Shown here in pieces: positions 48,418 through 64,000 of a stretch of 64,000 nt of DNA. Each line of letters opens with the position of its first letter. Positions within the stretch are counted from its first letter, which is position 1. Under the pieces are notes generated by a model. The model saw nothing but the letters and a program-made list of their open reading frames with translations. It did not search any database and had not been told where the DNA came from. Source of the stretch: Bacilli bacterium (GTDB taxonomy: Bacteria > Bacillota_I > Bacilli_A > ML615J-28 > CAG-313). The stretch covers positions 12,823 through 76,822 of the forward strand of contig DAOSEC010000008.1 in NCBI GenBank assembly GCA_035362935.1. Reading direction: 5' to 3'. A program made the translations under genes and the position numbers.

Positions 48418-49776
48418 CTACTTTCCTAAGCAAAATTTTGTAAATAGTTCGTCAAGCAACGAATCGCTTTTTGTATCGCCAATGATTTCTCCTAAGGATA
48501 ACCAAGCGGCATACAAATCGATGTTGATAATATCAACAGGCATTTCTTGATCAATCGATGCGAGTGCATCTTGAAGCGATTTTCTCGCTTCTTTTAATTT
48601 TGTGATATGACGAACATTACTGATGTAAGTTGCGTCAGATGCATTAAACTCATTGATTTTTGTGTATTGCTTTATTTTGTTTTCTAATTGATAAATATCT
48701 TCAATTTTATTTGCTGATATCAAAATATATTCAGGCAAATTCGATAAATCAATTTTTGATTTTAAATCCACTTTGTTCACAATGACAATTCGTTTTTTGT
48801 GTTTGGATAATTCTAACAATTCATAATCCATATCTGTTAACGGACTAGAATTATCAAGAACCAAGAAAATAATTTCTGCTTCTTCAATTGCTTTTTTACT
48901 GCGTGAAACACCAATCGATTCAACGACATCTTCTGTCTTGCGAATCCCAGCAGTATCAATTAAGTTGAGTACAACTCCACCTATGTTGATACTTCCTTCA
49001 ATTGTATCTCTTGTAGTTCCTTCTATGTCAGTAACAATGGCTCGGTTCTCTCTTAACATAGCATTTAATAAACTACTCTTCCCAACATTTGGTCTTCCGA
49101 TAATTGCTGTTTTGATTCCTTCTCTAATAATTCTTGATGTATTTGCTTTCTCAAGAATGACATTCATTTTATTGATTTGTGTTACAACAATTGGACGAAT
49201 TAATTCGTTTGTCATAACAACTGCGTCATCATATTCTGGATAATCAATGTTTACTTCAATGCTTGCTATTGATGTTAATATATCTTGTCGAAACGACTCA
49301 ATTAATTGCTTGACATCACCTAGCAAACCTTGATTTGCGAGTGACAAAGCATTCTCGTTTTGAGCCTCAATCACATCCATGACAGCCTCTGCTTGAGTCA
49401 AATCAATTCTTCCATTTAAATATGCACGCTTTGTAAATTCACCAGGTTCTGCCATGCGTGCTCCATGTATCAATGAAAGTTCCAAAATCTTATTTGTTAC
49501 ATAGATTCCACCGTGACAATTGATTTCAACAATATCTTCTTTTGTGAATGTTTTTGGAGACCGAAAGATTGAAACCAAGACCTCATCGACAATTTGCCCA
49601 TTTTCTGAATTTACGATATGGCCATAACTTATTGTGTGACTTTTTGCTTTTGCCAAATCTTTTCCTTTAAACATTTTTTTCACAATGGAAATTGCATCGT
49701 TTCCACTTAATCTAACAATGGAAATTGCGCCTTTTCCAAGTGCGGTTGAGATCGAAACTATTGTATCATCGAACAT
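48418..49776 (-). CDS. mnmE: tRNA modification GTPase MnmE
   Basis: 452 aa. G1-G4 GTPase motifs (GRPNVGKSS, DTAG, NKVD) and a C-terminal CxGK. Confidence 0.9.
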   Translation of the reverse strand: MFDDTIVSISTALGKGAISIVRLSGNDAISIVKKMFKGKDLAKAKSHTISYGHIVNSENGQIVDEVLVSIFRSPKTFTKEDIVEINCHGGIYVTNKILELSLIHGARMAEPGEFTKRAYLNGRIDLTQAEAVMDVIEAQNENALSLANQGLLGDVKQLIESFRQDILTSIASIEVNIDYPEYDDAVVMTNELIRPIVVTQINKMNVILEKANTSRIIREGIKTAIIGRPNVGKSSLLNAMLRENRAIVTDIEGTTRDTIEGSINIGGVVLNLIDTAGIRKTEDVVESIGVSRSKKAIEEAEIIFLVLDNSSPLTDMDYELLELSKHKKRIVIVNKVDLKSKIDLSNLPEYILISANKIEDIYQLENKIKQYTKINEFNASDATYISNVRHITKLKEARKSLQDALASIDQEMPVDIINIDLYAAWLSLGEIIGDTKSDSLLDELFTKFCLGK

Positions 49777-53311: not shown

Positions 53312-54712
53312 TTATTTATGTTTCGCCATTAATTTTAACATTCTTTGATCGCTAAACTTTTGACCAATGTATGTTTGTGCAGCAGAATAAATATTACCTA
53401 TTAACCAGTAGAACCCCAAACCTGCTGGACTTTGTAATACAAACACAGCCATCATGAGTGTCATAAAGTACATCATCATTTGTGTTTGTTTTTGAATGTT
53501 TTGTGTTTGTTCTGTTTGTTTTTTTCTATAGTCAGGAACATCACTTTGTGCTTCGTTTCTTAGTTTCTTCTGACGTTTCATCATTAACCATTGCATTAAT
53601 AATTGAGTCGCAACAACTAATAGTGCTAAAATCCAAATACCAATTTTTTGTGCAGTATCTGTTTGGCCTAAGAATAAATCCACTCCTAAAACTTTTGTTA
53701 AAAAGTTTCCATTTGAACTCCAAGTGTCTGGTGCTCTTCGAATGACATTATAAATACTTAAGAAGATTGGCATTTGTAAAAACGGTAATAAACATCCACC
53801 AATTCCAACTTTATACTTTTTGTATAGTTGTAAGGTTTCCATTTGCATCATGCGTTGTGATTCTGGATCTTGTCTTCCGGCATATTTTTCTTGTAACTTC
53901 GCTTGTTCTGGCTGCATGATTTGCATCTTTAATGTCATGTCGTTTGTTTTGGCATAAATCGGCCATGCCAATGTACGAATAATGATTGTGGTAAAAATAA
54001 TACCTATTGCGTATAATCCACCAAACAAATCTGAAATAAATTTAAGCATCATCCCAACCGGATAAACAAAGAATTTATCGAAGAATCCCCCGTCAAAAAC
54101 AATTGGTGTTAAGTTTGGTAACACTTCTTCTGTAAAGCGAAAATCGTCAAGATAGAACGTTCCTGTTTCTGATGCATCCGTTGTTTCGTATCCAATTGCA
54201 AAACCAGTTAAGTCACTTGCCTTTTTTCCTGCTTCAACATCTGTAATTTTAACGTGTACGTATCCACCATATGATTTGACTTCAGAAACATCGACTTCTT
54301 TTACTGCTTCCCCATCGCTCCACACTAATTTAACTAATAGGTTTTCAATGGTTCCTTTGTACCAAAACGAAAAATAAATATGTTGATTTGTAATATCTTC
54401 AATATTAATTGTGCTTGAAACAAATTCAGTACCAACTCCATTTGATCCATAAGTAAAAGCAAGACCTTTTCCTTGTCTAACTCCACCTTCTTGTGTGAAT
54501 GAAATGGAAGTACCATCTTGTGTAACATTGTCAAACAAATGTTGAAAGTCGCTTCGAATTTCTTCGGATGAGTTGTACTCGTACAACGAGTTAATTTCGA
54601 GTGGTTTTGTTTTAGGGACTGCTTGTGTACTACATCCAGAAAGAATGGTAGTCAGCCCTAAGAATAACACAAGGATCAAGAAATATTTGATTCGTGTTTT
54701 ATGTGTTTTCAT
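53312..54712 (-). CDS. yidC: membrane protein insertase YidC (lipoprotein form) with ~200-aa N-terminal extracytoplasmic extension
   Basis: 466 aa. Lipobox LSGC. The C-terminal ~260 aa are the YidC/Oxa1 core. The N-terminal extension is beta-rich (…FYLDDFRF…). Confidence 0.8.
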   Translation of the reverse strand: MKTHKTRIKYFLILVLFLGLTTILSGCSTQAVPKTKPLEINSLYEYNSSEEIRSDFQHLFDNVTQDGTSISFTQEGGVRQGKGLAFTYGSNGVGTEFVSSTINIEDITNQHIYFSFWYKGTIENLLVKLVWSDGEAVKEVDVSEVKSYGGYVHVKITDVEAGKKASDLTGFAIGYETTDASETGTFYLDDFRFTEEVLPNLTPIVFDGGFFDKFFVYPVGMMLKFISDLFGGLYAIGIIFTTIIIRTLAWPIYAKTNDMTLKMQIMQPEQAKLQEKYAGRQDPESQRMMQMETLQLYKKYKVGIGGCLLPFLQMPIFLSIYNVIRRAPDTWSSNGNFLTKVLGVDLFLGQTDTAQKIGIWILALLVVATQLLMQWLMMKRQKKLRNEAQSDVPDYRKKQTEQTQNIQKQTQMMMYFMTLMMAVFVLQSPAGLGFYWLIGNIYSAAQTYIGQKFSDQRMLKLMAKHK

Positions 54713-55087
54713 TTATTGTGTTTCCTCCGATGAATTTTTATTTGTTGTTTTTCGTAATACGGGTGATTTTGCATTTCGTAGTAGTTTTTCTAACTGTTCT
54801 TTTTTTTGTAAATATGGCAACTCTTCTGATGCTTTTTTTACAACAATTACCAAAGAAACATCTTCTAGGGAGTTGAGCATTGGTCGCACAATTTCTCGTA
54901 CAACTCTCTTTGCATAATTACGCTCTACTGCGGTTCCATACTTCTTTGAAACCGAGATCGCAATTTTCGCAGTTTGTCCACCGACTAACTTTCGATAAAC
55001 AACATAATACTTATTCCCTAAACTTTGTCTTAAATCTACAATATTTTTGATATCATGGTTTTTTGTTAATCTAAATCTTTTTTTCAT
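54713..55087 (-). CDS. rnpA: ribonuclease P protein component
   Basis: The ORF extends to 55135, but the start is taken at MKKRFRLTKNHD. Conserved rpmH-rnpA-yidC order. Confidence 0.8.
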   Translation of the reverse strand: MKKRFRLTKNHDIKNIVDLRQSLGNKYYVVYRKLVGGQTAKIAISVSKKYGTAVERNYAKRVVREIVRPMLNSLEDVSLVIVVKKASEELPYLQKKEQLEKLLRNAKSPVLRKTTNKNSSEETQ

Positions 55088-55189
55088 GTGTATCACCCAA
55101 AATAAAAACCTCTTGCTTGCAACTAAATTTGACAAACAAGAGGTCCAAGAAAATGTTTATTAAGTTTTTCTTTTTTTGCTTTAATAAAA

Positions 55190-55324
55190 TTAAGCTGATA
55201 ATACTTCTCTACCTTTTCGACGTCTACGCGATAAAACCGCTCTTCCGCCTGGCGTTGCCATTCTCGCGCGAAAACCGTGTGTTTTACTATGTTTACGTTT
55301 ATTAGGTTGGTATGTTCTTTTCAT
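55190..55324 (-). CDS. rpmH: 50S ribosomal protein L34
   Basis: A 44-aa ORF absent from the ORF track because it is under 60 aa. Hand translation gives [44 protein letters not shown]. Confidence 0.85.
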
Positions 55325-55358
55325 ATGAGCACCTCCCAATCAAAAACCATGCTGCTAC

Positions 55359-55387
55359 ATTGTATAATAACTTAACCCAAATGTCAA
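55359..55387 (-). promoter_or_regulatory. rpmH promoter (TTGACA-17 nt-TACAAT)
   Basis: Revcomp 55382-55387 is TTGACA and revcomp 55359-55364 is TACAAT. Confidence 0.45.
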
Positions 55388-55413
55388 CTGTTTTTGTTTT
55401 TAATTATAATGCA

Positions 55414-56346
55414 TTAATATGTTGGTAAAGTAGTGACAGGAAACTTATAGAAAAATGTCTCACTTTGTCCATTGGTGAATGTTATCTTTAATTCAAAATA
55501 TAAGTCAGTAGGATTATAGTCGATGCGAAGATCCCCGTTAAAGGTTGCAAGTGCTTTTAGTAAGGATCCTCTATACTCTACATATTTCAATGTGTTAGTA
55601 ATGTTTTCATTTGTGTCACTTTCGTGATTTTCAATCATCATAAATCCAACAAGAGAGATGGAATTTACTTCTTGATTTGTTTTCGGGCTTATGATTAACT
55701 GAACTCTTCTGGTTGTGGATGAAGTTAATCTTGTTCGTAGTGTCATTGAGATATAGTCATTGCTAATAACTCCACTTGTTGTTTGACTTGGGGTGGTATA
55801 TTGTGAAGTTGTTTGAGTTAACTCCTGCTTTAAATTGACTTTAATTTTTAATTCTTTTTCTGTTTTCTCAGAGTTGTTTTCTATGACTTCGTATATTACC
55901 TTTATATACACTGTTTTTGGTGTTTCATTTGGAGTGTTGTTGATTGTTTTTCTGAGCACGTTTGGTTTCCAGTTCGTAACTGTATTTGTGTTTTGTGGTA
56001 CATCTTCTTTAAAAAGATGTTTTCCCTCTGTGGTAACAATGGTATAGTACACAATAGTGCGATTTATTTCGATTTGGTCTTTTGCGTTAATTACAGTATA
56101 AAAACTATAGTAAGCAATCTCGTTTGCTCCCGACAATGATCTTGTTTCATTCACTCGAAAATTCACATGAATATCGTTGTTTTCATAAATTTCTTTGAAC
56201 TCTTTGTAAGGGTTGTTTGCGTTCTCAACTAAACTAACTATCCCGAATGTGATAAGACCAAGAATGATTGTGATAAATAAAAATAAAAATGTTTTTGTAG
56301 TTTTGTTCAGTTTGTTGATTGTCTCGATAATTGTCATTTCATTCAC
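55414..56346 (-). CDS. hypothetical N-terminally anchored T/N-rich protein inserted between rpmH and dnaA
   Basis: 310 aa. One N-terminal TM. Thr/Asn/Gln-rich extracellular part. No family recognised. Confidence 0.5.
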   Translation of the reverse strand: MNEMTIIETINKLNKTTKTFLFLFITIILGLITFGIVSLVENANNPYKEFKEIYENNDIHVNFRVNETRSLSGANEIAYYSFYTVINAKDQIEINRTIVYYTIVTTEGKHLFKEDVPQNTNTVTNWKPNVLRKTINNTPNETPKTVYIKVIYEVIENNSEKTEKELKIKVNLKQELTQTTSQYTTPSQTTSGVISNDYISMTLRTRLTSSTTRRVQLIISPKTNQEVNSISLVGFMMIENHESDTNENITNTLKYVEYRGSLLKALATFNGDLRIDYNPTDLYFELKITFTNGQSETFFYKFPVTTLPTY

Positions 56347-56573
56347 TCCTTTTGGTTCGTGTTCATTTTACTTTAAGGGCTTGTTTTTTGCAAGTAGTTT
56401 TTCCACTTTTCCAAATGTGCAAAAGTTTTGACAAATTATGGAAAAGTGAATAAGGTGATATTTTTTGTAAAACTCTGTGGAAAACTTAAAATTGCAGGTT
56501 TTTTATTTTATTGTTTATTATTTTTTTTCTTTGTGGTATTATTAAAATGATGAAATTTTAATGAGGTGGTAGT
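56347..56573. promoter_or_regulatory. oriC part 1: DnaA-box cluster upstream of dnaA
   Basis: DnaA-box variants TTTTCCACT (56399-56407), TGTGGAAAA (revcomp TTTTCCACA, 56476-56484), TATGGAAAA (56437-56445) and TGTGGTATT (56532-56540), embedded in AT-rich DNA. Gene strand bias switches here. Confidence 0.6.
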
Positions 56574-57980
56574 ATGAGGTCAGGAAAAGAGTTGTGGGAT
56601 TTAGTAAAAAATCAGTTAAAGTTAGAGATGGCTTCGACAGATTTTTCTGAAATTTTCGATCCAATAACTGAAATACATAAAATACACAACAAATATATTT
56701 TTTTAATTGTTCCAGATATTTTAACAAAATTTCGTATTGAAAAATTCTATTTGGATACAATGAATAAGTTATTAGTGCAAATTGAAGAAGATAAACACAA
56801 CTTTAAATTAATAACAAGAGAAGTCGCTGACAAAGAAAACTCAGACAACCAAAAGCTTGGTTTAACAAGTGTGGACTCAGTAGACAGACAAGTCAGTAAA
56901 CGAAACCTAAGGAGTGAGTATACATTCGACAATTTTGTTACCGGTGAGTCGAACCGTTTTGCATGGATGAATGCAATCAAGGTTGCAGAGAGCCCTCATG
57001 TAACAGTCAATCCTCTTTACATCTTTGGGGATGTTGGTCTAGGGAAAACACATTTGATGATGGCAATTGGACACTACATATTAGATAACAACATCCACGC
57101 TAACGTTGTTTATACTACCGCTCAACAATTTGCTGAAGATTACTTTTTAGCAACCAACAAAAAAAACATTAACGATATTGAGAAGTTTTACAATTATCAT
57201 CGAGCAGCTGATATTTTACTAGTTGATGATATTCAATTTTTAAGTGGCAAGAACTCTACACAAGAAGAATTCTTTAAAGTGTTTGAACATTTATTTGAAA
57301 CAAACAAGCAAATTGTTATTACATCAGATAGAGCAGCAAGTGATTTAGAGAATATGATGGCAAGACTTAAGTCAAGGTTTGCATGGGGAATGCTCGTAGA
57401 TATTAAAAGCCCCGATCTAAACCTAAGAATATCTATCTTGAAAAGAAAATTAGCATTCTTGATTCCAAATCCAATAGATGTTCCTAATAATGTATTGGAG
57501 TTTATTGCAACAACATTTGATCAAAATGTAAGAGATTTAGAAGGTGCTTTAAGAAGATTTGTGTCTTTTTGTGTTTCGTTTAATTTGCCTTTTACATTAG
57601 AAAGTGCAAAGCAATCATTAGAAGGAATCACACCTAAAAACAAATTGGATTCATTTGTAACAAACGATACCAATATTGATAAAATAAAACAAACAGTTGC
57701 ATCTTATTATAAAATAACTGTTTCTGACTTAGAATCAACAAGTAGAAAACAACACATAACATATCCAAGACAAGTTGCGATATATTTGATTCGGTCACGC
57801 TATGACATTCCTCTAAAAAAGATTGGTGAGTTTTTTGGAAACAGAGATCATGCTACAATATCACACTCTTATGATAAAATTATTAACGATATTAATTCGA
57901 ATTTACAAATCAAAAATGACATTAACATTATAGAGTCTAAAATCGAGGAAAGTTTAAAGAAAAAAGAAAAAAATAATTAA
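56574..57980 (+). CDS. dnaA: chromosomal replication initiator DnaA
   Basis: 468 aa. AAA+ (GDVGLGKTHL) and a C-terminal DnaA-box binding domain. Confidence 0.95.
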   Translation: MRSGKELWDLVKNQLKLEMASTDFSEIFDPITEIHKIHNKYIFLIVPDILTKFRIEKFYLDTMNKLLVQIEEDKHNFKLITREVADKENSDNQKLGLTSVDSVDRQVSKRNLRSEYTFDNFVTGESNRFAWMNAIKVAESPHVTVNPLYIFGDVGLGKTHLMMAIGHYILDNNIHANVVYTTAQQFAEDYFLATNKKNINDIEKFYNYHRAADILLVDDIQFLSGKNSTQEEFFKVFEHLFETNKQIVITSDRAASDLENMMARLKSRFAWGMLVDIKSPDLNLRISILKRKLAFLIPNPIDVPNNVLEFIATTFDQNVRDLEGALRRFVSFCVSFNLPFTLESAKQSLEGITPKNKLDSFVTNDTNIDKIKQTVASYYKITVSDLESTSRKQHITYPRQVAIYLIRSRYDIPLKKIGEFFGNRDHATISHSYDKIINDINSNLQIKNDINIIESKIEESLKKKEKNN

Positions 57981-58117
57981 AATCATGTTTCATTATTTAT
58001 TTATTTATGGTATAATATAGCTATGAAAAATGTGGTGTTTTACATGTTTTCCACATTTCCACACACCCTAATAATAAAAACTAATTTAAAAGAATGAAAT
58101 AGGAGGTAGTTTCTGGT
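57981..58117. promoter_or_regulatory. oriC part 2: dnaA-dnaN intergenic region with DnaA boxes and an AT-rich unwinding-like stretch
   Basis: The AT-rich run ttatttatttatttatgg (58002-58019) overlaps the -10 TATAAT at 58011-58016. DnaA boxes: TGTGGTGTT (58031-58039), TTTTCCACA (58047-58055) and ATTTCCACA (58055-58063). Confidence 0.6.
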
Positions 58118-59242
58118 ATGAAATTTACTATTAATCGAGATTTATTACTTTCAGAATTAAATCATGTGTCGAAAGGGTTGTCTACAAAAACTCCTATGCC
58201 AATACTAACTGGTATAAAAATTGCTGTAGAAATGGATGGATTAACGCTAACAACCTCAAACACTGAAATATCCATTCAAGTTAAGATTCCAAAGTCACAA
58301 TACCTAACTATAGAAGAAGTTGGTGAGTGTGTTGTTCCTGGTAAATACTTTTTAGAGATTATTCGTAAGATTGATGCTAGAGACGTTGACTTCGCAATTT
58401 TCGAAGAAAATATGATTAAGATTCTTGCAGACAGGTCAAACTTTACATTGATTGGATTAGATAAGGATGATTATCCATTGATTAATTTTAACGATTCTTC
58501 TGAAAATGTTGTTCTTGATGGAAACACTTTAAAACAAATAATCAAACAAACTTCATTTGCTACAGGTGTTAGTGAAACTAGAATTATACTAACAGGGATT
58601 TCGTTTGTAATAAATGAAAATCGCCTGACCGCAACTGCAACAGATAGTTTTAGATTGGCGAAAAAAACAATTAAGTTACCTAAAAATTATGAGAAAATTA
58701 GCGTTGTTGTTCCTTCAAAAGCATTAGATGATTTGAATAAAATCATCGATGATGCAGACGAAAAAGTTTATGTTCACCTTATGAATAATAAAGTTTTATT
58801 TAAATATAAAAACATTTCATTCCTAACTCGACTTATTGAAGGTACTTACCCAGACACATCAAGTTTAATTCCAAAAGAATTCTTTACAGATTTGAAATTT
58901 AATAAGCAAGAGCTTATTTCAGCGATTGATCGTGCAGCTTTATTCACTGTGTTGGATGCTGCAAACATAGTTAAATTGACTTTAAAGAGCGATAAAGTGG
59001 TCGAAATTGCTTCTAATTCTAACGAAATCGGAAAAGTCGTAGAAGAAGTTTATCCAACAGAGTGTAGTGTGTTAAAACCGTTCCAAATCGCGTTTAGTTC
59101 AAAATACTTCTTAGATGCTATAAAATCGTTCGATTCAAATGAAATTACAATCCATTTTACAGGAGAAATTAAACCTTTTGTTGTAAGTGGAGAATATGAT
59201 CCAAATTTAACCCAATTAATCCTTCCAGTAAGGGTTTCATAG
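58118..59242 (+). CDS. dnaN: DNA polymerase III beta sliding clamp
   Basis: 374 aa with the three-domain beta-clamp pattern. Follows dnaA. Confidence 0.9.
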   Translation: MKFTINRDLLLSELNHVSKGLSTKTPMPILTGIKIAVEMDGLTLTTSNTEISIQVKIPKSQYLTIEEVGECVVPGKYFLEIIRKIDARDVDFAIFEENMIKILADRSNFTLIGLDKDDYPLINFNDSSENVVLDGNTLKQIIKQTSFATGVSETRIILTGISFVINENRLTATATDSFRLAKKTIKLPKNYEKISVVVPSKALDDLNKIIDDADEKVYVHLMNNKVLFKYKNISFLTRLIEGTYPDTSSLIPKEFFTDLKFNKQELISAIDRAALFTVLDAANIVKLTLKSDKVVEIASNSNEIGKVVEEVYPTECSVLKPFQIAFSSKYFLDAIKSFDSNEITIHFTGEIKPFVVSGEYDPNLTQLILPVRVS

Positions 59243-59254
59243 CAAAAAAGACAT

Positions 59255-59284
59255 CAAAAAACCACCTTTCGGTGGTTTTTTTCT
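59255..59284. terminator. bidirectional terminator between dnaN and parA-like gene
   Basis: aaaaaccacc-tttc-ggtggttttttt. Confidence 0.65.
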
Positions 59285-59299
59285 GCTTTTAAGGTATAA

Positions 59300-60085
59300 T
59301 TATAACGAAAACTCGCTGAAAATCTCTCTCATCTCTTCTTCCATTTGATCTCTGTTCTTTTGGTGAAAATTTGACGACATTTGGTAGTTATCAAAGATAC
59401 TAATACCTTCACTTTGTAAATTCTGAATTACAGACTTTTCACTGATTGGAGTAATCACTTTTGCACTTGGGGTATACTTCTTAGCAGACTCCACCAAATT
59501 GTTTAAATATTTGTTCGGAGCAATCTTAACTTTGTGGTATCCAGTGGGTACAATATAGTTGATTTTTGTCACATCGATATCAGAATCAACAAAATATTGA
59601 ATTGTACTTAAATATCCATCCATTCCTAAACTATCTAAGCCTACCACAATAATAATATCATCACTTATGTCCAACAAAACTTCTGTCAAACGACTACTTG
59701 AAGGTGGAAAATCGATAAAAATATAGTCAAAGAAACGCTTAAAACTATTCATTATGTCCTTTAAACGCTTTTCTTGTGATCTTTCTAAGGTCAATCTCAT
59801 CGAAAGTTTGTCTGTATTTAAGGTTTTAATTAAATACATATTTATTCTTGCCTCAAAAACCACATCTTTGGGCTCTATTAACCCCGCCAACAAGTGTTCT
59901 AAGTAATTAGAGTCGTTATTGTAGATTTGATCCTCTACTCCAAAGATTTTGAACACACTATTTTGATCATCTGCACTGATTACCAACACTGTTTTCCCTT
60001 GGAGTGCATAGTAGTGAGCTAAGTAACCAATGAAGGTTGTTTTACCAACACCACCCTTTTTGCAAAAGGTTGATACAATTGCCAT
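59300..60085 (-). CDS. small ParA-family partition ATPase (type Ib-like, no N-terminal HTH)
   Basis: 261 aa. Deviant Walker A KGGVGKTT at residues 9-16. Opposite strand to all neighbouring origin genes. Confidence 0.8.
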   Translation of the reverse strand: MAIVSTFCKKGGVGKTTFIGYLAHYYALQGKTVLVISADDQNSVFKIFGVEDQIYNNDSNYLEHLLAGLIEPKDVVFEARINMYLIKTLNTDKLSMRLTLERSQEKRLKDIMNSFKRFFDYIFIDFPPSSSRLTEVLLDISDDIIIVVGLDSLGMDGYLSTIQYFVDSDIDVTKINYIVPTGYHKVKIAPNKYLNNLVESAKKYTPSAKVITPISEKSVIQNLQSEGISIFDNYQMSSNFHQKNRDQMEEEMREIFSEFSL

Positions 60086-60086
60086 A

Positions 60087-60344
60087 CTACTTTACTCCTT
60101 CCCTTGTTAATTTCTCTTTACATGCTTCCTCAATGAACTCTGAAAACATCATTCCACTCATTGCGCAAGCTATTTTGATTCTTTTTCTCAGTGTTGGATC
60201 CATAGTAGCAGTATATTTGTCTCTTTCGGGGGTTTTAACCTGCTCGATTGGTGCTGGTTTTGCCACAGGTGCTACAAATTCTTGCTTTTCTGGAGATACA
60301 CCCGCTCTTTCAAACGGATTTGTACGTTTTTTAATTTGATTCAT
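60087..60344 (-). CDS. ribbon-helix-helix protein (ParG/omega-like putative centromere-binding partner/regulator)
   Basis: 85 aa. Unstructured N-terminal tail. The C-terminus KYTATMDPTLRKRIKIACAMSGMMFSEFIEEACKEKL follows a beta-alpha-alpha RHH pattern. Strong RBS AGAGGAGG. Lies 1 nt upstream of parA. Confidence 0.6.
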   Translation of the reverse strand: MNQIKKRTNPFERAGVSPEKQEFVAPVAKPAPIEQVKTPERDKYTATMDPTLRKRIKIACAMSGMMFSEFIEEACKEKLTREGVK

Positions 60345-60371
60345 ATCATAACCTCCTCTTTTTCACCCGAA

Positions 60372-60380
60372 ATTATAGCA
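60372..60380 (-). promoter_or_regulatory. extended -10 promoter (TGcTATAAT) driving the RHH-parA operon
   Basis: Revcomp is gtTGcTATAATt, about 25 nt upstream of the RBS. An identical 12-mer recurs at 60636-60647. Confidence 0.5.
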
Positions 60381-60637
60381 CAACAACCTAAAAAGCACAA
60401 GTACTTATTTTAGTATTTACCAATATACATACATATGTAAATAAGTATATAAGGTAAAAAAGCAATTTTCGAAGTTTGACACCACAAACACATTGTCTTT
60501 CAGATCAAAACCATGCTTTTGCATCAAAACACAAAATCGCACAGGAATACAACAAAGTCAACACCTGAAGACCTGAGGGAATCCAAAAATCAGCTTCAAA
60601 TTTTAGTTTAAATCGATTTTCCAAAGTTGAATGAAAA

Positions 60638-60646
60638 ATTATAGCA
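60638..60646 (-). promoter_or_regulatory. second copy of the same extended -10 element (TGcTATAAT), 266 bp further upstream
   Basis: The 12-mer aaattatagcac occurs at both 60370-60381 and 60636-60647. Confidence 0.35.
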
Positions 60647-60888
60647 CCCCCACCCTCGTAAATCGTCAAAAACGAAATTATGGTGATGACACAACACTCA
60701 CAGTGGAGAAGCTAAACCGAGCCAGCAACACCTCAAGACCGATCGATAGAATTTAAAAACCACAACTTAAAAACCACCCACAAATACGTAAAAACATAAA
60801 TAAATAAAAAAGTAAATACCAAAAAACACGGAACACTTAATGCAAACAGATGCCTTAACCTGGTCAAAAAAACGAAAAAATCTAAAAA

Positions 60889-61074
60889 TTAATTTGAACA
60901 ACAAACAAAAACGCACAAAAACCAAGCCAATAAATTTGAAGTTCAAACAAAAAGAGCCAAATCAATTTTGAAATTCAAATAAAAAAACCATAAAAAAGCA
61001 GATTTTACTTTTAAGTTCAAATAAAAAAGCTAGGTTTTCGGATGAGTTGCCTGATTAAAGGTTTTAACTTCAAA
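60889..61074. repeat. array of about four ~24-bp direct repeats, each carrying a TTTGAA-N-TTCAAA palindrome (iteron/centromere-like)
   Basis: tttgaaGttcaaa (60935-60947) and tttgaaAttcaaa (60967-60979) are perfect palindromes. Degenerate copies lie at 61010-61021 and 61063-61074. Each is followed by (a/c)AAAAAG. Further TTTGA-tat-TCAAA at 61427-61439. Confidence 0.55.
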
Positions 61075-61462
61075 CTAAAGAGACAGCATAAAGTGCGTTG
61101 AGTCGTTGAATCGAATCATAATGGAACGTTGTTGTTTGGTTCTGGGTATGTGCTTCAATCAATAACAGGACTCGCTGTCTAATAACGATCTGCACTGAAA
61201 TCAACATCATTCGACTTTGAATATCTCTTAGAGACCCAACGTAAGGTTTGAAACAGTAAAAAACACACCACTTTACACATAAACACAAAAAAGTAAATAC
61301 ATAAAAACGTATATAAGTAAAAATAATCGCAATATTTAATAAAATTAAGTATAAACGTAAAAGAGTAAATAAGTAAATACATAAAAACACAAAAAAAGTC
61401 AACCAGATCTTGTTTTTGGTGCATAGTTTGATATTCAAACAACACAAAAAACATCAATTATG

Positions 61463-61497
61463 ACGTGGTTTTCGCATAAAAAACCACTCTTTTTATA
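61463..61497 (+). terminator. plus-strand rho-independent terminator at the end of the A+C-rich block
   Basis: gtggtttt-cgcata-aaaaccac followed by tcttttta. It is not needed by dnaN, which has its own terminator, so it would terminate a plus-strand transcript of the non-coding block. Confidence 0.5.
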
Positions 61498-61696
61498 AAA
61501 ATTCTTTATAAACACTCTTTTATGTATAATATATAATAAGGACAATCGTTTTAAATAGAAAAATTATGATTAAAAAGGGATTGCTTGTTAATATCAAGCA
61601 AGTTTTAATAATTTGATAGGAAATAATCAAAAAACAAATTAAAAAACATAAACTTTCAAAAAACTTAAAAAATCACTGGTGTTTTTTGATTTTTTA

Positions 61697-61705
61697 TGTT
61701 ATAAT
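61697..61705 (+). promoter_or_regulatory. extended -10 promoter (TGtTATAAT) for yaaA-recF
   Basis: 27 nt upstream of the yaaA ATG. The RBS AAAGAGG lies 8 nt before the ATG. Confidence 0.5.
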
Positions 61706-61732
61706 AAATTAACGAATAAAGAGGTCCAAAAT

Positions 61733-61963
61733 ATGAAAAAAATTAACATAAAAACAGAGTTTATAACACTTGGACAACTACTTAAAATACTTGATATAGT
61801 TTCAAGCGGTGGAGAAGCGAAATTTTACATAAAAGAGCATAAAATATTTGTAAATGGCACTCTAGAAGATAGAAGAGGGCGAAAACTCAGAAAGGGAGAT
61901 TTAGTGGTTTTATCTGACCTAAAAATCTTAATTGATGATCAAAATGATGATTCAAAACATTAA
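61733..61963 (+). CDS. yaaA: S4-domain RNA-binding protein YaaA
   Basis: 76 aa. S4-like (…GEAKFYIKEHKIFVNGTLEDRRGRKLRKGDLV…). Canonical position between dnaN and recF. Confidence 0.8.
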   Translation: MKKINIKTEFITLGQLLKILDIVSSGGEAKFYIKEHKIFVNGTLEDRRGRKLRKGDLVVLSDLKILIDDQNDDSKH

Positions 61964-63029
61964 ATCTTGGAATTTTCGTAATTTCACGCGGTCTACCCAT
62001 GTATTCTCTGAAGGAATAAACATCATTTGTGGCGATAATGCAACAGGGAAAACATCTTTATTAGAGCAAATCTATGTTCTTTGCTTGACTAAGTCGCATC
62101 GAGCTAAAAAGGATATTGAAATGATAAAATTGGGATCTGACTTCTTGGTTTTGAAAGGTAGTTTTGTGTCTCCTGTCAAATCTATAGACTTGCAGCTTTC
62201 TTTATCAGACAAAGGTAAAATCGCCAAGATTGGAACAAAAGAAGTAAAAAACCTAAGCTCTTATATTGGAGTCGTCAATGTTGTGTTGTTCTGTCCTGAG
62301 GATTTGTTGATTGTTAAAGGATCTCCCGGAGACAGAAGAAAATTTTTGGATGTGGAAATGGGACAAATATCTCCAAACTACCTTCGAGACTTAATTGAAT
62401 ACAAAGATTTAATCAAACAAAGAAACGCTTTGTTAAAGGACTTCTCCTCAACAACCCCAAAAAACAAAACATTACTTGATGTTTTGGATGAAAAAATAGT
62501 TCTTGTAGGCATAAAGATAATACAAGCTCGAACAAAGTTTCTTAACATGTTAAACCAAATCGCTGTTGATAAGATGACAGCGATTAGTCGCAACAACGAA
62601 ACCCTTAGAATAGTTTATAAACAAAATGTTGCTGTTGAACAATTTTCTGAAACATTGAAACAAAGTCTTGAAAGCGACTTAGCAAAAGGATCGACGTCTG
62701 TGGGTCCGCACAGAGATGATTTTGTTATTGAAATAAATGATCAGGATGTTTCTTTGTTTGGTTCACAAGGACAGCAAAGATCGTCTGTGTTAGCTCTCAA
62801 GTTTTCATTGCTGCAATTAATTTCAAACGTCAAAAAAGAGATGCCAATATTATTGCTAGATGATGTGTTTAGTGAACTTGACGAATACAGACAAAACGAA
62901 ATACTAAAGTTAATTAATAAAGGTGTGCAAACATTTATTACCACAACAACTATAAACGAAATTGATAAAGAGATATTAAATAAATCTAACTTGATTTATT
63001 TGACAAAGGAGAATGGCAATGAAAGATAA
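61947..63029 (+). CDS. recF: DNA replication and repair protein RecF
   Basis: The ORF begins at 61932, but the start is taken at MIQNIKSWNFRNF. Walker A GDNATGKTS and signature/Walker B at the C-terminus (LLLDDVFSELD). Confidence 0.9.
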   Translation: MIQNIKSWNFRNFTRSTHVFSEGINIICGDNATGKTSLLEQIYVLCLTKSHRAKKDIEMIKLGSDFLVLKGSFVSPVKSIDLQLSLSDKGKIAKIGTKEVKNLSSYIGVVNVVLFCPEDLLIVKGSPGDRRKFLDVEMGQISPNYLRDLIEYKDLIKQRNALLKDFSSTTPKNKTLLDVLDEKIVLVGIKIIQARTKFLNMLNQIAVDKMTAISRNNETLRIVYKQNVAVEQFSETLKQSLESDLAKGSTSVGPHRDDFVIEINDQDVSLFGSQGQQRSSVLALKFSLLQLISNVKKEMPILLLDDVFSELDEYRQNEILKLINKGVQTFITTTTINEIDKEILNKSNLIYLTKENGNER

Positions 63030-64000
63030 CAAATCAGTTGATAGTAAACACTATGATTCCAGTAGTATACAAGTACTCGAAGGATTAGAGGGAGTTAGAA
63101 AACGCCCAGCTATGTATATTGGATCTACTTCCGCAAGAGGACTTCATCATTTGGTTTGGGAAATTGTGGATAATGCGATTGATGAAGCATTGGCCGGATA
63201 CGCAACCGAAATCAATGTAGAGATCATGGATGACAACGTTATTAAAGTTGTTGACAACGGTCGCGGAATCCCTACAGATATTCACCCAAAAACAAAGATA
63301 TCGACAGTGGAAACGATATTTACGGTTTTACATGCTGGTGGGAAATTTGACGGGAAAAGCTATAAGGTGTCTGGAGGGCTTCATGGTGTCGGGGCATCGG
63401 TAGTTAACGCCCTAAGTGAATGGTTAAGAGTTGAGATTAAAAAAGACGGACACACTTACGAACAACTATTCCGTAGAGGGAAAAGAGAGTATGAGTTAAA
63501 GCAAGTTGGGGATAGCGAAGAAACCGGTACGACAGTAATGTTTAAAGCGGATGCTGAAATCTTTAAAGAAACTGTGGAATATGATTATGAAACTTTACGC
63601 CAACGGATTCAACAACTTGCGTTTTTGAACAAAGGATTAAGAGTCATTGTTAAAGATTCTAGATTTGACAAACCAAATAAAGAACACAATTACTACTATG
63701 AAGGTGGAATTAAAGAGTACGTTGCATTTTTAAACAAAAGCAAATCAGTTCTACATAATCAAATTATTTATTTTGAAGATGAAGTAGATAACGTTCAATT
63801 AGAAATTGCAATGCAATATACAGATGACTATAACAGTAATATTTACTCGTTTACAAATAACATCCACACACACGAAGGTGGAACCCATGAAGAAGGATTT
63901 AGAAACAGCTTAACTAGAATTCTAAACAACTATGCAAAAAATCATCCAACTTTCAAAAAAGAAGAAGCTTTAAGTGGTGATGACGTTCGTGAAGGATTAA
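63019..64000 (+). CDS. gyrB: DNA gyrase subunit B (5' part; continues beyond the window)
   Basis: Hand translation from the ATG at 63019 (GGAG 7 nt upstream) gives MKDNKSVDSKHYDSSSIQVLEGLEGVRKRPAMYIGST…HHLVWEIVDNAIDEA…, the GHKL ATPase N-terminus of GyrB. Absent from the ORF track because there is no stop in the window. Confidence 0.9.
   Translation, partial: MKDNKSVDSKHYDSSSIQVLEGLEGVRKRPAMYIGSTSARGLHHLVWEIVDNAIDEALAGYATEINVEIMDDNVIKVVDNGRGIPTDIHPKTKISTVETIFTVLHAGGKFDGKSYKVSGGLHGVGASVVNALSEWLRVEIKKDGHTYEQLFRRGKREYELKQVGDSEETGTTVMFKADAEIFKETVEYDYETLRQRIQQLAFLNKGLRVIVKDSRFDKPNKEHNYYYEGGIKEYVAFLNKSKSVLHNQIIYFEDEVDNVQLEIAMQYTDDYNSNIYSFTNNIHTHEGGTHEEGFRNSLTRILNNYAKNHPTFKKEEALSGDDVREGL

Follow-up and report, generated by a model that had tools for sequence, protein, structure and literature searches.

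What is a ParA-family ATPase gene, paired with a gene for a small ribbon-helix-helix (RHH) protein, doing between dnaN and yaaA in the origin region of a bacterial chromosome? Known RHH adaptors come from plasmid systems and from the chromosomes of archaea. We analysed such a gene pair in a 64-kb stretch of DNA from a Bacilli bacterium (contig DAOSEC010000008.1; hereafter the window), together with the non-coding DNA between the RHH gene and yaaA (60345-61732; hereafter the spacer). The sequence evidence and the analogy with characterized systems suggest, with a probability of roughly 0.6, that the locus serves DNA partition of the chromosome, lies close to the origin by vertical inheritance and follows type Ib logic. 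Reviews describe ParA-dependent segregation of bacterial chromosomes as always coupled to a helix-turn-helix (HTH)/CTPase ParB and parS sites (PMC7022226, PMC7333895), and list RHH adaptors for plasmids (PMC7022226). Full-text literature searches, which were of incomplete coverage, found no published account of a dnaN-yaaA ParA-RHH locus.

An earlier note on this DNA had reported that a segment encoding a ParA and an 85-aa protein on the opposite strand separates dnaN from yaaA. The open reading frame (ORF) listing and the domain assignments confirm this, and give the following layout.

56574-57980, plus strand: dnaA (ORF listing).
58118-59242, plus strand: dnaN (ORF listing).
59256-59281, bidirectional: intrinsic terminator AAAAAACCACCTTTCGGTGGTTTTTT at the convergent dnaN/ParA junction (terminator scan, sequence).
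59300-60085, minus strand: ParA-family ATPase, 261 aa (ORF listing, Pfam, alignment, AlphaFold2, Foldseek).
60087-60344, minus strand: RHH protein, 85 aa, putative centromere-binding protein (ORF listing, profiles, AlphaFold2).
60345-61732: AT-rich non-coding region, 1388 bp (ORF and Rfam scans).
61733-61963, plus strand: yaaA (Pfam S4_2, E=3.5e-26).
61932-63029, plus strand: recF (ORF listing).
From 63031: gyrB (ORF listing).

The TAG stop of the RHH gene is separated by a single base from the ATG of the ParA gene, whose Shine-Dalgarno sequence, AAGGAG, lies inside the last codons of the RHH gene. The two genes thus make up a single, translationally coupled operon in which the RHH gene comes first. 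We found no convincing ORF in the spacer (60345-61732). A protein-coding role for the spacer was rejected, because most of the 55 complete spacers collected from related genomes lack an ORF of at least 60 aa and the ORFs seen in the window (for example 61070-61447) are low-complexity artefacts. The 1.4-kb repeat block noticed earlier does adjoin the operon, and its repeats do exceed chance; it lies, however, upstream (5') of the RHH-ParA operon and does not follow it.

Pfam places the 261-aa protein among the ParA/MinD-type ATPases (AAA_31, E=7e-24; CbiA, E=7e-9), and no other KGGxGK[ST] ATPase is encoded in the window. Its deviant Walker A motif, CKKGGVGKTT, occupies residues 8-17; since it begins at residue 8, the protein has no N-terminal HTH domain, in agreement with the earlier description of a small HTH-less ParA. 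Walker A, the DDQNS switch and the Walker B sequence IDFPPSSSR are invariant in an alignment of 24 homologues, and AlphaFold2 predicts a confident ParA/MinD fold (pLDDT 90). Attempts to assign a subfamily (PDB profile, NCBIfam, Foldseek) were unsuccessful: similarity to Soj, McdA, delta, ParF and MinD is weak and about equal (18-23% identity, TM 0.6-0.76 by Foldseek and PDB profile), and none of the NCBIfam equivalog thresholds was passed.

The 85-aa protein has three parts, an N-terminal MNQIKKRxNPF, a variable linker and a C-terminal domain. The N-terminal motif, which across the clade reads [KR][KR]xNP[FL], and the beta-strand KYT[AS]TM (KYTATMD in the window) are near-invariant in 23 homologues and in the 80 related loci described below, and the linker varies from ~10 to ~90 residues across homologues. 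The C-terminal domain has the consensus RDKYT(A/S)TMDxxLRRxIKIACAxxGxMFSxFIEEACxEKLxREG. A profile of the 23 homologues matches the solved RHH repressor 2KEL (E=3.6e-6), and Pfam matches among them are to RHH_10 (9/23), 56B_RHH (8/23) and Omega_Repress (5/23, best E=5.7e-6). On its own the window protein matches RHH_10 best, at 21.7 bits (E=2.6e-4), which is below the 27-bit cut-off. The AlphaFold2 monomer has a disordered N-terminus (pLDDT 56-65) and, after KYTATMD, helices at 50-63 and 67-82 (pLDDT ~90); its Foldseek neighbours are all RHH domains, at E-values that are non-significant for so small a domain. These profiles and the model identify the C-terminal domain as a predicted RHH, so that the proposal of an RHH protein with a flexible N-terminal tail holds. 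The suggested comparison with the plasmid ParF/ParG/omega families came out mixed: some homologues match Omega_Repress, as given above, but the window protein itself matches neither Omega_Repress (PF07764) nor ParG. The family is small and separate: clustering at 50% identity leaves 75 representatives of it in a set of 1.84 billion proteins.

Using the ParA alignment, we scanned a single genome from each GTDB species; 119 species matched, and 80 loci were fetched and compared. These are metagenome-assembled genomes (MAGs) from guts and digesters, labelled Acholeplasmatales, Acholeplasmataceae, Mollicutes, Tenericutes or 'Bacilli bacterium', and their DnaN is 46-63% identical to that of the window. 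The cassette occupies the same position, between dnaN and yaaA, in 80/80 of them. In every locus that is long enough, tblastn gave the order gyrB-recF-yaaA, a spacer of 0.7-3.0 kb, RHH, ParA, convergent dnaN and dnaA, and rpmH-rnpA-yidC-jag; closer metagenomic relatives, whose RHH proteins are 72-81% identical, have the same gene arrangement. The synteny comparison proposed in the earlier note therefore finds the cassette at the dnaN-yaaA junction throughout the clade, and what had been called unusual at this locus is the clade's rule. As a separate observation on the same block, in L016, L024, L029, L030, L034 and L044 there was no tblastn match to the window RecF between yaaA and gyrB; because the yaaA-gyrB gap is also too short, recF is apparently missing from the origin block of this sublineage.

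Pairwise ParA identity across the loci tracks that of DnaN, DnaA, GyrB and RecF (Spearman 0.72-0.83, compared with 0.80-0.81 among the housekeeping genes themselves), and ParA is the better conserved protein (mean pairwise identity 0.63, against 0.52 for DnaN, 0.53 for DnaA and 0.39 for RecF). The sequences thus point to a module that is anciently and vertically inherited in this clade. They also bear on the possibility, raised earlier, that the cassette is a scar left by an integrated replicon. Such a replicon could have been a plasmid or a prophage, and its partition cassette would have stayed behind without a function for the host. ParA and RHH gene pairs with upstream iterons are indeed typical of plasmids such as TP228, pSM19035 and pCXC100 (PMC3074162, PMC9499535), and both genes run on the strand opposite to their neighbours. 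Against this stand the fixed junction in species this divergent and the co-divergence of ParA with housekeeping genes. Furthermore, the ORF listing of the segment contains no rep, integrase, transposase or other mobile genes, and the GC content of its coding part is not anomalous. The best plasmid ParAs are only 25-37% identical to the window ParA, the RHH protein has no match among plasmid, phage and viral sequences, and searches of viral contigs and phage records for relatives of either protein returned nothing relevant. Because of the fixed synteny, the co-divergence and the lack of close plasmid, phage or viral relatives, we reject a scar as hardly credible. The other earlier suggestion, a domesticated plasmid cassette serving as an origin-proximal segregation system, fares better in one half: the partition role fits the evidence, but a plasmid origin is not demonstrated, since Soj, McdA, delta and ParF all stand at much the same distance from the ParA. 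The module may or may not descend from a plasmid in the remote past.

If the cassette has long been part of the chromosome, is the usual partition system also present? The earlier observation that soj, spo0J, mnmG and rsmG do not follow mnmE in the window is correct; mnmE (48418-49776) is followed there by a GHL10-like gene. The ParB box GERR[WFYLRK]RA does not occur in six-frame translations of the window and the 80 loci. The 16-bp parS (TGTTNCACGTGAAACA) has no match with at most two mismatches in the window, where matches with three mismatches are at chance level; 87 loci contain no exact match, and 1.3 Mb of origin-proximal DNA from the 80 loci contains only 2 parS-like sites with at most two mismatches. 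These searches cover 64 kb of the window genome and ~20 kb round the origin of the 80 relatives. The ParA-RHH system probably takes the role that ParB-parS has in other Firmicutes.

A partition locus of this kind would need a DNA site for the RHH protein. The 55 complete spacers have 11-39% GC, are mostly T-rich on the ParA strand and, in one subclade, have lengths concentrated near 1350 bp. K-mers of the TATGTAT and GTATTTATG type are 12- to 67-fold enriched over the Markov expectation, with at least two copies in 52/55 spacers. They resolve into an iteron with the unit TWTTTAYN, 8 bp long and repeated head-to-tail, and TTTAC-TTTAC distances accordingly peak at 8, 24, 32 and 40 bp. In the 50 spacers used for array counts, arrays of three units (at most two mismatches) at period 8 occur 295 times on the ParA strand, compared with ~17 expected from a second-order Markov model and 52 on the other strand; the control periods 7 and 9 gave 6 and 8 arrays, respectively. 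Array density is 11.3 per kb in spacers and 0.17 per kb in ~950 kb of flanks. The window alone contains 18 triple-iteron matches (1.7 expected), of which 14 are in the spacer, all on the ParA strand, and 5 chains of at least three in-phase units in the spacer against 1 in the remaining 62.6 kb. Its iterons, at least 25 contiguous units in all and most of them in one orientation, form three clusters, labelled A to C, the last of which meets the proximal promoter of the operon (P2).

60351-60357, minus strand: ribosome-binding site AGGAGGT of the RHH gene (sequence).
60372-60400, minus strand: promoter P2 of the RHH-ParA operon, with -35 TTGTGC, a 17-nt spacer and the extended -10 TGCTATAAT.
60401-60459, minus strand: iteron cluster C, forward units TTATATAC TTATTTAC ATATGTAT..., then inverted GTAAATAC TAAAATAA GTAC.
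60778-60828, minus strand: iteron cluster B, 5-6 contiguous in-phase units GTATTTAC TTTTTTAT TTATTTAT GTTTTTAC GTATTTGT.
61277-61395, minus strand: iteron cluster A, two in-phase chains (6 + 5 units; ~14 unit positions) split by a degenerate stretch.

The inverted units of cluster C directly adjoin the -35 of P2, which makes this cluster a putative operator and part of a putative centromere. P2 is kept in close relatives and, as TTGcTTGaa...TGnTATAAT...AGGAGG, in an alignment of 27 species, where the equivalent of cluster C reads TATTTATGgTTgTATgTA...TAAATAAATATTGC and is followed by the -35, TGnTATAAT and AGGAGG. The iteron core (TTATGTAT / TATTTATG) is enriched in both subclades of the clade. 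Whole-spacer nucleotide identity proved uninformative as a measure of constraint, since shuffled AT-rich pairs reach 0.70-0.77 and real pairs 0.76-0.81; we judged constraint from local conserved blocks, motif statistics and positions instead. The earlier note had proposed the palindromes at 60.9-61.1 kb as the likely RHH sites. Their sequence shifts between subclades and they are absent from one, and the iterons appear to be the better candidates, because they adjoin the operon promoter and are conserved clade-wide along with the nearly invariant RHH beta-strand. Both subclades share the iteron core and a near-invariant KYT(A/S)TM(D/E), as one would expect of a protein conserved together with its cognate site.

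By analogy with omega, ParG and SegB, RHH dimers in a partition system built from these parts would bind the iteron arrays cooperatively. Each 8-bp unit would take one dimer, much as omega occupies its 7-bp heptads, and the resulting partition complex would form 4-5 kb from oriC. Coating of the iterons by the RHH protein would at the same time repress P2, giving autoregulation. The basic N-terminal tail (KKRxNPF) would contact nucleoid-bound ParA-ATP dimers and stimulate ATP hydrolysis, and the ParA gradient would then pull or position sister origin regions apart by a diffusion ratchet.

The same proteins could serve a different end. The ParA-like ATPase would then place a cargo other than DNA, or a component of the division apparatus or the envelope, in the manner of McdA, MinD, MipZ and FlhG, and the RHH protein would be an autorepressor of the operon and nothing else. 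The ParA subfamily is undecided by sequence, and FlhG, MipZ, McdA and MinD are among its Foldseek neighbours at TM-scores like those of Soj and delta. We nevertheless consider this improbable. An autorepressor's operator needs far fewer iteron units than the three clusters provide, and the RHH protein carries its conserved basic peptide apart from the DNA-binding domain, as an adaptor would. The strict origin linkage in all species would be left unexplained, and there is no linked candidate cargo gene.

The spacer of the proposed partition locus contains more than iterons. These further elements are listed below; P1 is a distal, promoter-like module.

60587-60669, minus strand: P1, with ACGATT (-35), a G-rich block GAGGGTGGGGG and the extended -10 TGCTATAAT (TATAAT at 60638-60643).
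60610-60619, minus strand: palindrome AAATCGATTT in conserved sequence downstream of the P1 -10.
60893-61074, no strand assigned: five 13-bp palindromes TTTGAAnTTCAAA, each after a minus-strand T-run, 42, 32, 42 and 53 bp apart from start to start.
61427-61439, no strand assigned: isolated palindrome copy TTTGATATTCAAA, the counterpart of a 23-bp palindrome AATACTTTTAATTTAAAAGTATT conserved in the long-RHH subclade.
61503-61543, minus strand: conserved block GTCCTTATTATATATTATACATAAAAG, iteron-like sequence beside a TATAAT-rich element (invariant in close relatives).
61612-61628, minus strand: conserved block GATTATTTCCTATCAAA, clade consensus GCGATTnTTTCCTATCAAAAAATTGAC (close relatives and 27-species alignment).
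61697-61705, plus strand: extended -10 TGTTATAAT of the yaaA promoter, at the right-hand end of the non-coding region (sequence).

The sequence TTTGAnnnTCAAA has 15 sites in the window, 6 of them within ~550 bp of the spacer. Close relatives keep the window palindromes unchanged. Where the RHH linker is long, relatives carry TTTTAA(A/T)TTAAAA at the same position in 5-10 copies, in the form TTTTAAATTAAAA (for example L018 spacer 620-964 and L005 616-866), with spacing modes of 32-33, 42-44, 53-55 and 64 bp, that is, whole helical turns. The half-sites co-vary between lineages (G..C versus T..A), which points to a binding site with dyad symmetry. The short-RHH subclade has no palindrome array, which is why we think that the array is not the RHH target.

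P1 was found by iterative nhmmer in 49/55 spacers, always on the same strand and 259-400 nt upstream of the RHH start, and it is invariant in close relatives. Its consensus consists of TTGATTTTA, a G/C block of 10-13 nt (often the palindrome CCCCCnGGGGG), (C)GAATAA or TAATAA, and the AAAATCGATTT core; the G/C block, between -35 and -10, is embedded in DNA with a GC content of 11-30%. By its sequence P1 resembles a second promoter directed at the operon. On the yaaA side, the block at 61503-61543 has the clade consensus TAtgTAttTAtGTATATTCCTTATTnTATATATA, with column scores of 0.9 in the 27-species alignment, and its TATAAT-rich element may be an RHH-controlled promoter facing yaaA-recF-gyrB. 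The yaaA extended -10 is kept in the same alignment as the reverse complement TATTATACCA.

A conserved promoter-like module with conserved sequence downstream of it, together with a plus-strand terminator-like hairpin at 61465-61487 (GTGGTTTTCGCATAAAAAACCAC, then a T-run), could mean that the spacer is mainly one or more non-coding RNA genes, for example P1 transcripts, and that the repeats are incidental. The RNA evidence makes this very improbable. Rfam gave no match at E <=1 over 55000-64000 and, at gathering score in 7 other loci, only T-box leaders, all outside the spacers. RNAalifold found 0 consensus pairs in 49 aligned P1 modules, and a hairpin proposed at the 5' end, downstream of P1, was rejected because it is 64% paired against 61% in shuffles and does not outperform slid registers. 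The GC-richer 'islands' that separate the clusters have no sequence conservation even among close relatives, and the low GC content of the spacers makes them poor material for structured RNA. A further terminator-like hairpin lies at 61581-61601 (TTGCTTGTTAATATCAAGCAA); neither of the two is kept in the close relatives L081 and L083. For a partition locus, the palindrome array and P1 would be further conserved parts.

These elements also raise the possibility that the locus is mainly a regulator of the origin region. The RHH protein would then repress globally, as omega does, with P2, P1 and the yaaA-facing promoter as targets, and the ParA would modulate DnaA or replication initiation like Soj in B. 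subtilis; the AT-rich region would, as part of the same reading, extend oriC or organise the nucleoid. Only 3-5 kb separate the locus from dnaA and oriC, its iterons adjoin at least two promoter-like elements, iteron-like sequence recurs in the yaaA-side block, and the region is bigger and more complex than a plain centromere. There is also precedent, as omega acts on several promoters and Soj on DnaA (PMC7614844). Nevertheless, we judge this unlikely as the main role, while giving it some weight. The DnaA boxes are at 56476 and 58047, on either side of dnaA; the idea of a DnaA-box cluster in the spacer was dropped, since 59243-61732 contains 0 boxes with at most one mismatch. The switch in GC skew and gene orientation lies upstream of dnaA. 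Long arrays far from promoters, such as the ~14 units of cluster A, are not needed for simple repression, and the conserved N-terminal tail, of the type that activates ParA, suggests a motor-adaptor pair. Regulation and segregation are not exclusive in any case: omega does both.

Several points weigh against a partition locus. DNA binding, stimulation of the ATPase and segregation are predictions from sequence, and the iterons are candidate RHH sites. The RHH gene precedes the ParA gene, here and in all 80 loci, the reverse of the classical parA-parB, parF-parG and segA-segB order. The absence of ParB-parS holds only for the origin-proximal DNA that was searched. Known type Ib centromeres are much smaller and simpler than this 1.4-kb region with its palindromes and P1, and the region may therefore have additional or other roles, for instance in regulating the origin or in controlling yaaA-recF-gyrB transcription. 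Finally, the iteron motif is AT-rich, and weaker iteron-like matches occur in other spacers of the origin region (dnaA-dnaN, ParA-dnaN). Part of the enrichment thus reflects AT-rich intergenic composition, although the control for 8-bp phasing argues otherwise. Such weak matches (TTATTTATTTATTTAT) lie at 57986-58016 in the window (dnaA-dnaN) and at ~+1000 and +2250 from the RHH start in related loci; they may be extra RHH sites or AT-rich low-complexity DNA.

The partition reading can be extended, and we do so tentatively, at rather worse than even odds. A whole clade of Bacilli that lack a wall or are reduced (the Acholeplasmatales and their relatives from guts and digesters) would have replaced ParB-parS with the RHH system, with a composite 'megacentromere' of 1-3 kb at dnaN-yaaA, the first bacterial chromosomal counterpart of SegAB. 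Its iteron arrays would serve the RHH adaptor, and the phased palindromes and the GC-block promoter module would recruit further factors, such as an SMC loader or a protein that organises the origin.

Some observations concern the neighbourhood. The other side of the origin carries jag, a C92-like gene, rmuC, an RDD-family gene, mnmE and the GHL10-like gene. In the rpmH-dnaA gap, at a junction where these two genes usually adjoin, the minus strand of the window has a 310-aa ORF (55414-56346) with a GTG start, an N-terminal transmembrane segment, a Thr/Asn/Glu-rich composition and no Pfam family. A dnaA-rpmH gap of ~1.3-1.4 kb is common to all related loci. Because tblastn similarity to the ORF is seen in only six of them and is weak (22-26%), the gene would be either fast-evolving or not real. 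YidC (53312-54712, minus strand, 466 aa) has a ~200-aa N-terminal extension that starts with a lipoprotein-like signal, LSGCS, and tblastn matches in relatives are mostly to its C-terminal insertase part. In the related loci L001 (2002-2219 and 20412-20652), L037, L058 and L075 the origin region has T-box leaders on its flanks (Rfam RF00230, 98-131 bits); Rfam found none in the window between 55000 and 64000.

If the partition reading is right, a deeply conserved, origin-linked ParA-RHH-iteron locus would be a natural CTP-independent chromosomal centromere in uncultured gut and digester Bacilli. It would also offer a way to learn how origins are segregated in reduced Firmicutes and Mollicute-like bacteria that lack ParB. 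With three parts (a 261-aa ATPase, an 85-aa adaptor and 8-bp repeats) the system would be compact and easy to reconstitute. The cassette is, in addition, a practical marker of the origin region in MAGs of the clade.

How, then, does the locus compare with known systems? It resembles chromosomal Soj/Spo0J/parS in lying near the origin, in having a ParA-family ATPase without an HTH and in the task presumed for it, the segregation of sister origins. Lacking both an HTH/CTPase ParB and parS, it is not a ParABS system. The partner is an RHH protein, the window has neither a GERRxRA box nor the 16-bp parS, the genes lie at dnaN-yaaA and not beside rsmG/mnmG, and CTP-dependent clamping and spreading are not expected. 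The archaeal SegAB system of Sulfolobus likewise combines a chromosomal ParA-type ATPase with a site-specific DNA-binding RHH protein. The unstructured N-terminus of SegB stimulates the SegA ATPase, SegB sites are found immediately 5' of the operon, and a higher-order complex is assembled from multiple dimers (PMC8682754). SegAB differs in being archaeal, in the order segA-segB, in having a few palindromes as SegB sites and not long 8-bp arrays, and in having no tie to a dnaA-dnaN block. SegB was not matched in the RHH profile search of the PDB, and the profile match of the window ParA to SegA (7DUT, E=2.4e-4) is confined to the N-terminal P-loop, so the resemblance would be functional and architectural only.

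Among plasmid systems, ParF/ParG of TP228 also consists of an HTH-less ParA-family ATPase and an RHH protein with autoregulatory repeats upstream of the operon, and the flexible N-terminal tail of ParG, cited in PMC8682754, stimulates the ATPase. Unlike in TP228, the gene order here is reversed, the location is chromosomal and the repeat region is much larger; there is no ParG sequence match, and ParF is shorter (~206 aa; Foldseek TMq 0.56-0.61). Delta/omega of pSM19035 likewise has a small HTH-less ParA and an RHH protein of ~70-85 aa with a disordered N-terminal tail, and Omega_Repress is the Pfam family that five of the 23 homologues of the window RHH match. It too has separate clusters of contiguous short repeats, direct and inverted, at promoters (7-bp there, 8-bp here), and because of the position of the clusters one protein would be both repressor and adaptor, as omega is. 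Omega needs at least four contiguous repeats to activate its ParA, and the chains of 5-6 contiguous units in the window exceed this number (PMC9499535). The window system is, in contrast, chromosomal, origin-linked and vertically inherited; its unit is 8 bp and of another sequence, its RHH gene is directly upstream of and translationally coupled to parA, its ParA is ~19% identical to delta, it has no epsilon/zeta toxin module, and it has an extra palindrome array and P1. The earlier assignment to a type Ib gene pair is correct in its ParA/RHH logic (at the sequence level, an HTH-less ParA, a predicted RHH partner with a tail and promoter-abutting repeats are all present), but two classical type Ib features, the parA-first order and plasmid carriage, are absent here. 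As far as sequence allows a judgement, the window system would work like type Ib and SegAB systems, and by sequence it belongs to none of these families.

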